DNA of 64,000 bases, from NCBI RefSeq assembly GCF_056712565.1, contig NZ_CM160072.1; one strand, written 5' to 3'. The number at the start of each line of letters is the position of its first letter. The stretch's first letter is position 1. This document shows positions 48,119 through 48,507 of the stretch, in pieces. Made by a program: the position numbers and the translations under genes. Below the pieces are notes generated by a model. That model ran no database searches and was not told where the DNA came from. It saw only the letters and a list, made by a program, of their open reading frames with translations.

Positions 48119-48507
48119 GTTCACTGCCGTACAGGCAGTTTAGAAATGGATTCCAAACCGCCCACCAACAAAAACAGGTGTTCACTGCCGTACAGGCAGC
48201 TTAGAAAGATACGATCGAATTTAGTCACTGAATACCCCCGTTCACTGCCGTACAGGCAGCTTAGAAAGGGTTGCGCAATGGGCTGGCCGACGAACGCGGG
48301 TTCACTGCCGTACAGGCAGCTTAGAAATGTGGCGCTGATGCGTCTGGGCGTCTTTGTACGTTCACTGCCGTACAGGCAGCTTAGAAAGCGCGCAGTGCCT
48401 GATAATCAATTTTGCTCATGTTCACTGCCGTACAGGCAGCTTAGAAAGAATATTTTGGAAAAATAGCTATCAATCCGGGGTTCACTGCCGTACAGGCAGT
48501 CTTCAAA
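48119..48507 (+). CRISPR. Type I-F CRISPR array 2: 7 repeats (first with one mismatch, last degenerate), 6 spacers
   Basis: Repeats at 48119, 48180, 48240, 48300, 48360, 48420, 48480; first repeat has C to T at position 21; first spacer 33 bp, others 32 bp; terminal repeat GTTCACTGCCGTACAGGCAGTCTTCAAA. Confidence 0.97.

Follow-up and report, generated by a model that had tools for sequence, protein, structure and literature searches.

A variant leader-proximal repeat in a non-functional type I-F CRISPR-Cas locus of Escherichia coli

Repeat 1 in a CRISPR array on an Escherichia coli chromosome, the copy lying next to the leader, carries T instead of C at position 21 (hereafter T21) and is followed by a spacer of 33 bp rather than 32 bp. 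Does such a variant indicate that the array has long been inactive, or is its origin more ordinary? An initial annotation of this DNA favored the first view, arguing that the leader-proximal repeat is the template duplicated during acquisition and that a variant at this place suggests a lack of recently acquired spacers. We addressed this question using a stretch of 64,000 nucleotides (contig NZ_CM160072.1 of RefSeq assembly GCF_056712565.1), referred to below as the window; all positions are those of the window unless stated otherwise.

The window belongs to a chromosome of the E. coli B2/ST95 type, on which clpA and infA enclose a type I-F CRISPR-Cas locus (Table 1). The region matches complete B2/ST95-type chromosomes, including those of UTI89, S88, APEC O1, IHE3034 and the type strain DSM 30083. 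Touchon and Rocha described this locus, in which CRISPR3 adjoins cas1, and a tRNA-Ser separates CRISPR4 from cas6f (PMC2886076).

Table 1. Features of the CRISPR-Cas locus and its surroundings (window positions)
Feature	Position	Strand	Remarks
Array 1	38731..39058	+	6 repeats, 5 spacers; corresponds to CRISPR3; same orientation as array 2; last repeat degenerate
cas1f	39231..40214	+	apparently intact; TIGR03637 (549.9 bits); RefSeq WP_000097886.1 in identical DNA
cas2-3 (cas3f)	40211..43444	+	apparently intact; TIGR02562 (1208.6 bits); full 1,077 aa
csy1 (cas8f)	43774..45081	+	apparently intact; TIGR02564
csy2 (cas5f) pseudogene	45078..46001	+	TIGR02565; TAG amber at 45291-45293, after residue 71 of 307
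csy3 (cas7f)	46012..47013	+	apparently intact; TIGR02566
cas6f pseudogene	47024..47578	+	TIGR02563; CAG>TAG amber at 47390-47392; Cas6f truncated at residue 122 of 184
tRNA-Ser(GGA)	47689..47776	-	between cas6f and the array 2 leader
Array 2 leader	47900..48118	+	AT-rich; phased conserved blocks in common with the array 1 leader
Array 2	48119..48507	+	7 repeats, 6 spacers; corresponds to CRISPR4 of Touchon and Rocha 2010 (PMC2886076)
Repeat 1 of array 2	48119..48146	+	GTTCACTGCCGTACAGGCAGTTTAGAAA; C>T at repeat position 21 (window 48139)
Spacer 1 of array 2	48147..48179	+	33 bp; TGGATTCCAAACCGCCCACCAACAAAAACAGGT
infA	48620..48838	-	core gene flanking array 2 at the trailer side

The unit of both arrays is a 28-bp repeat, GTTCACTGCCGTACAGGCAGCTTAGAAA. 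Repeats 2-6 of array 2 are canonical copies of this sequence, from which repeat 1 differs solely by T21, and the terminal repeat (48480-48507) is degenerate (T21 C22 T24 C25). Spacers 2-6 (five of the six) are 32 bp long, and the start-to-start spacing is 60 throughout array 2 except at spacer 1, where it is 61. Twelve of the 13 repeats of the two arrays, including all seven of array 2, match Rfam CRISPR-DR4 (those of array 2 on the + strand), and only the last repeat of array 1 (39031-39058) falls below the threshold; repeat 1 of array 2 scores 47.3 bits, compared with 50.1 bits for the canonical copies. Direct repeats of another kind, tandem, CAG/CCG-rich and with a period of 39 bp, are present in ftsK (56827-56943 and 57861-58124), where they encode a Gln/Pro-rich linker.

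The leader of array 2 is located upstream of repeat 1. This orientation is confirmed by (i) the degeneracy of the last repeat of each array, (ii) phased conserved blocks common to the 160 bp preceding array 1 and array 2, and (iii) the spacer content of related strains, which is shared toward infA and varies at the opposite end. The array 2 leader is at least 95% identical in 225 of 240 E. coli genomes with a I-F locus, and more than 90% identical in the remainder. A consensus promoter scan of this leader detected no promoter on the + strand, although a simple consensus can miss real promoters. In E. coli 503440, a copy of IS100 (IS21 family) interrupts the leader region of the corresponding array, on the stretch that separates tRNA-Ser from the first repeat (613-2414 of the locus L014), and such insertion is another route of decay of the I-F locus.

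The assignment to type I-F (I-F1) is based on the presence of Cas1f and a Cas2-Cas3 fusion protein, on the genes of Csy1/Cas8f, Csy2/Cas5f, Csy3/Cas7f and Cas6f occurring in this order (csy2 and cas6f only as pseudogenes), and on a 28-bp repeat, with a predicted hairpin of a 5-bp stem and a 5-nt loop, that alternates with 32-bp spacers. The gene order is the same as that in the RefSeq annotation of related genomes. Between cas2-3 and csy1, the cas operon contains 330 bp without any sizeable ORF (43445-43773), a feature found in all of the related genomes.

The six uninterrupted cas ORFs expected of a functional I-F system are not present, since both csy2 and cas6f contain an in-frame TAG codon. 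Because of these two amber mutations, the I-F system of the window strain is non-functional, though cas1 and cas2-3 are intact; the amber stops could in principle be partly suppressed. The same two genes are annotated as having an internal stop in genomes that are identical to the window in this region, and csy2 is annotated in this way in S88, IHE3034, ExPEC XM, HS13-1 and Z0117EC0054. The csy2 amber allele is present in 124 complete E. coli genomes. A search with 61-bp probes centered on the cas6f amber and on T21 revealed the cas6f amber in 11 genomes, which are the very 11 that carry T21. The acquisition assay with intact Cas1 and Cas2-3 that had been suggested for this array overlooks the csy2 and cas6f pseudogenes of the window strain.

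Both peculiarities noted by the initial annotation, i.e. T21 and the 33-bp first spacer, were confirmed. A sequencing or assembly error as the source of T21 can be dismissed: the identical base occurs in 11 independent complete assemblies, of strains from humans, chickens and a dog in several countries. In the probe search, these were the only genomes with T21 among 5,426 complete E. coli genomes: HS13-1, SF-468, Z0117EC0054, MS15052, APEC E18055, APEC 16-1068, 10035004-3, AH21G053, AH19D088, UID2404240036 and OZ546991. The leader, repeat 1 and spacer 1 are identical in all 11. Array 2 of UTI89, S88, IHE3034 and ExPEC XM agrees with that of the window in the identity and order of all six spacers, but its repeat 1 has the canonical C21. 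Judging from the C found at this position in these four strains and in LF82, C21 is the ancestral state, and by the same comparison T21 is a young, lineage-specific C>T transition.

Over the 10 kb of the CRISPR-Cas locus, the window is identical to Z0117EC0054 and differs from S88 at exactly two positions, 47390 (in cas6f) and 48139 (in repeat 1), where C of S88 is replaced by T. The whole alignable region of 62.6 kb contains only seven substitutions and one indel relative to S88, and the lineage is very young. Two of the seven substitutions fall within the CRISPR-Cas locus, which accounts for 16% of the aligned length (about 1.1 expected), and this enrichment is not significant; a single SNP and one 33-bp spacer are statistically unremarkable. 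Another of the differences from S88 is located in potG (8403; C in the window, T in S88). This gene is annotated with an internal stop in S88; the pseudogene allele may be specific to that strain, with potG intact in the window. Nothing corresponding to the segment 1-1352 is present at this site in S88, which has ybjJ and rcdA there. From the translations of its ORFs, we take the segment to be the end of a P2-like prophage, with one ORF for a late tail protein resembling gpD (61-978) and another for an Ogr-like zinc-finger protein (1036-1287).

Two other identities for repeat 1 were considered and rejected. It is not a degenerate terminal repeat, as it abuts the conserved leader, and the true terminal repeat is found at 48480-48507. 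Neither is it a solitary repeat mimic or RNA anti-CRISPR (Racr): it constitutes the first unit of a regular chromosomal array of seven repeats at the clpA-infA site, and the Racr concept refers to a repeat-like hairpin that stands alone, away from any array, and is typically carried by a phage or prophage (PMC10651486).

The initial annotation had linked the variant repeat with the 33-bp spacer. Since the two are adjacent in the window, they might be regarded as products of one imprecise integration event, but this is hardly conceivable, as the distribution of the spacer refutes it. A probe spanning repeat 1 and spacer 1 detected the 33-bp spacer in 122 of the 5,426 complete E. coli genomes, and in 111 of them it follows a C21 repeat (the remaining 11 have T21). 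In LF82 the identical spacer is internal, being number 10 of 22, with canonical repeats on both sides and nine spacers toward the leader. T21 is a later substitution. Because of the C21 beside the spacer in the 111 genomes and its internal position in LF82, the 33-bp length is unrelated to T21, and the two are independent of each other. All six spacers of array 2 form a subset of the LF82 array (LF82 numbers 10, 11, 12, 14, 15 and 22).

A spacer of this length is not exceptional. Among the 135 unique spacers of all the loci that were fetched, 129 are 32 bp long, five are 33 bp (3.7%) and one is 31 bp. In Pectobacterium atrosepticum, approximately 10% of newly acquired I-F spacers are 33 nt long, mostly as a result of an imprecise PAM-distal cut (PMC5059440). 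The first spacer of array 2 is old, inherited and of a normal minority length. The idea that 33-bp spacers end in T was dropped; all three E. coli examples do so, but two more, from Photorhabdus and Serratia, end in G and A. A search for the protospacer of the 33-bp spacer, intended to show at which end the extra base lies, gave no match in 50,697 phage records, only a chance partial match in plasmids, and none in IMG/VR.

The premise of the initial annotation concerning the template is sound, since the first repeat is duplicated during I-F integration (bioRxiv 10.1101/2023.05.26.542337). Integration requires only the 5'-GT of the repeat (bioRxiv 10.1101/2023.05.26.542337), and for this reason T21 should neither block nor hinder the insertion of spacers. 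Does the variant template then in itself mark array 2 as long inactive? Apart from this premise, the idea draws on the 11 genomes themselves: no copy of T21 is present in repeat 2 or beyond, and newer spacers upstream of the T21 repeat, which were specifically sought, were absent, the leader abutting this repeat in 11/11. We nevertheless consider it doubtful. T21 occurs in only 11 of the 122 genomes with the spacer and is one of just seven substitutions relative to S88, so it dates a very recent interval only; moreover, the 111 C21 genomes already possessed a frozen array, and the cause of its inactivity is the csy2 amber.

The latter point is indicated by the work on Pseudomonas aeruginosa, in whose I-F system neither naive nor primed adaptation proceeds without an intact Csy complex and a crRNA (PMC4678832). 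If this requirement also holds in E. coli, the csy2 amber alone would stop acquisition in the 124 genomes that carry it. We found no ongoing leader-end acquisition among close relatives, with the leader-proximal spacer unchanged across the lineage. The sole difference between arrays seen within ST95 is an internal gap of three spacers in array 1: at the point corresponding to 38910, IHE3034 and many other ST95 genomes contain three extra internal spacers (180 bp). This difference indicates an internal deletion in the lineage of the window, not a gain at the leader end. The conclusion of the initial annotation therefore stands, in that array 2 has acquired no spacers recently, but the evidence for it is that csy2 and cas6f are broken and the array is identical across the lineage. 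The variant repeat is weak evidence in this respect, as it excludes acquisition only since T21 arose.

The spacers of both arrays match IncF-type plasmids. Three of them have perfect 32-bp matches in thousands of plasmids of Escherichia, Klebsiella, Salmonella and Shigella: spacer 4 of array 1 (38939-38970; match in an unannotated region), spacer 5 of array 1 (38999-39030; in an antirestriction gene) and spacer 4 of array 2 (48328-48359; in a gene of a RepB-family replication initiator). UTI89, APEC O1 and S88 carry spacers that match their own plasmids (PMC2886076). A system unable to perform interference would tolerate such spacers, and the loss of interference fits these targets.

The terminal repeat provides another conceivable source of T21, i.e. 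gene conversion or recombination between the two ends of the array, since T21 is present in the terminal repeat of the window array and in that of all sampled E. coli I-F arrays. However, the terminal repeat differs from the canonical sequence at positions 21, 22, 24 and 25, and repeat 1 only at position 21, which would demand a conversion tract of a single base. No intermediate alleles combining T21 and C22 in repeat 1 were seen among the 122 genomes at the resolution of the probe search. A C>T transition offers a simpler account, and the second change specific to the lineage within this locus is likewise C>T; we regard conversion as highly improbable.

The same substitution was found outside E. 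coli. A single copy of the exact T21-only variant of the repeat is present in each of Photorhabdus thracensis, Serratia quinivorans, S. rubidaea, Cedecea colo and Affinibrenneria salicis, always as the last or second-to-last repeat. By virtue of this consistent placement in five enterobacterial species, position 21 appears as a recurrent site of trailer-end repeat decay; the end of the array is where the 3' eight bases of the repeat are least constrained.

A different situation was observed in E. coli 82.0312 (NZ_CP122451.1; 2720-2927 of the locus L016), where all four repeats (4/4) are of the terminal type, GTTCACTGCCGTACAGGCAGTCTTCAAA (T21 C22 T24 C25), and are separated by three unique 32-bp spacers. 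This arrangement suggests an array that shrank to its terminal repeat, from copies of which it was later restored. Such a pattern, arising in nature and not in an experiment, would be expected from repeated copying of a variant first repeat, and it agrees with the view that T21 should not hinder acquisition. The strain now has an internal stop in csy1, and the T21-carrying repeat was presumably propagated through three acquisitions before this stop arose. Any crRNAs of E. coli 82.0312 would have the handle UCUUCAAA.

What would T21 do in an active system? In the I-F repeat transcript, Cas6f cleavage takes place at the hairpin's 3' base, so that the upstream crRNA retains a 3' handle of 20 nt and the downstream crRNA a 5' handle of 8 nt (PMC5965380). 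As repeat bases 21-28 remain on the downstream crRNA, position 21 is the nucleotide (-8) with which the 5' handle of the spacer 1 crRNA begins, immediately 3' of the Cas6f cut. The label "3' handle region" used for these bases in the initial annotation is thus incorrect: in the DNA they close the repeat at its 3' end, but in the crRNA they serve as the 8-nt 5' handle (PMC5965380). Were the system active, the first crRNA would carry the 5' handle UUUAGAAA instead of CUUAGAAA. Folding of the repeat with U21 predicts an added A5-U21 pair across the scissile bond, giving a stem of 6 bp instead of 5 bp (-9.8 versus -8.6 kcal/mol), and in an active system this extra pair would span the Cas6f cleavage site. 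A full-text literature search for experimental data on C21 (Csy4 together with G20 and C21) returned none.

The predicted lengthening of the Cas6f hairpin and the perfect co-occurrence of T21 with the cas6f amber may be taken to mean that T21 is adaptive, altering the processing or loading of the first crRNA, and that the two changes were selected together. Both lineage-specific changes affect one step, namely the Cas6f enzyme and the base beside its cut, and could be read as non-random, with n=2 events. Against this, the older csy2 amber should already abolish formation of the Csy complex, leaving nothing for selection to act on, any two mutations that arose on a single clonal branch are expected to co-occur perfectly, and no target of spacer 1 was found. 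An adaptive role is consequently very unlikely. We give equally little credence to the proposal, derived from the folding model, that C21U is not neutral, i.e. that the A5-U21 pair and the changed -8 base would modify processing of the first crRNA or its loading onto Csy, and that the association with the cas6f amber would reflect selection and not clonal hitch-hiking.

We therefore favor, with a probability of roughly 0.88, the explanation that T21 is a recent and most likely neutral C>T point mutation in an I-F locus that was already decaying. The events form a nested series. The 33-bp spacer entered an ancestral array, its length being that of a normal minority of I-F acquisition products, and the ST95-type lineage came to have a six-spacer subset of this array, in which the 33-bp spacer lies beside the leader. 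An amber stop then arose in csy2 (cas5f), now present in 124 complete genomes, and one sublineage (11 complete genomes) subsequently gained both the cas6f amber and T21 of repeat 1, each by a C>T change. The csy2 amber is placed first because it is much more widespread than the two later changes. In the absence of Cas5f, and in the window also of full-length Cas6f, a Csy complex would not be formed, and neither interference nor adaptation should take place. In such a dead system there would be no selection against a change in repeat 1, from which we infer the neutrality of T21, and no new spacer that would copy it.

In itself, T21 matters little biologically: the locus has already been described, and T21 is a strain-level SNP, real but ordinary and not novel, in a well-described E. 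coli I-F locus decaying in the ST95 lineage. Combined with the amber of cas6f, it is a clean marker of one ST95 sublineage (11 of 5,426 complete genomes). The succession of the csy2 amber, followed by the cas6f amber and the repeat change, documents a stepwise decay of the I-F system whose spacers match common IncF plasmids. The locus also calls for caution when arrays are read from sequence only, as a leader-proximal spacer is not necessarily recent, and a variant first repeat dates inactivity only as far back as the age of the variant itself.

The closest known systems are the I-F loci of E. coli at clpA-infA (Ypest subtype; UTI89, S88, APEC O1 and LF82), whose chromosomal site is identical to that of the window, and which share with it the six cas genes in the same order, the 28-bp repeat, the tRNA-Ser and spacers. 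Unlike S88, the window and its 10-11 sister genomes have two additional C>T changes, the cas6f amber and T21. The degenerate trailer-end repeats found elsewhere include the same T21-only variant, but as the last or second-to-last copy, whereas that of the window is leader-proximal; the first crRNA would take its handle from the 3' eight bases of this repeat.

The I-F system of P. atrosepticum was studied by Staals et al. (2016); its repeat is, we assume, identical in sequence to that of the window. As in the window, the spacers of this system are 32 nt long, with a minority of 33 nt produced by the normal acquisition machinery (PMC5059440). The P. atrosepticum system is, however, active and acquires spacers, whereas the window contains csy2 and cas6f pseudogenes and a frozen array. 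In this respect, the window resembles the decaying loci of Escherichia and Shigella analyzed by Touchon and Rocha (PMC2886076), with cas pseudogenes, retained leaders and arrays, and loss of spacers without gain. The decay described there concerns mainly type I-E (PMC2886076), whereas that of the window affects a type I-F system and has proceeded through point nonsense mutations, not IS insertions or deletions.
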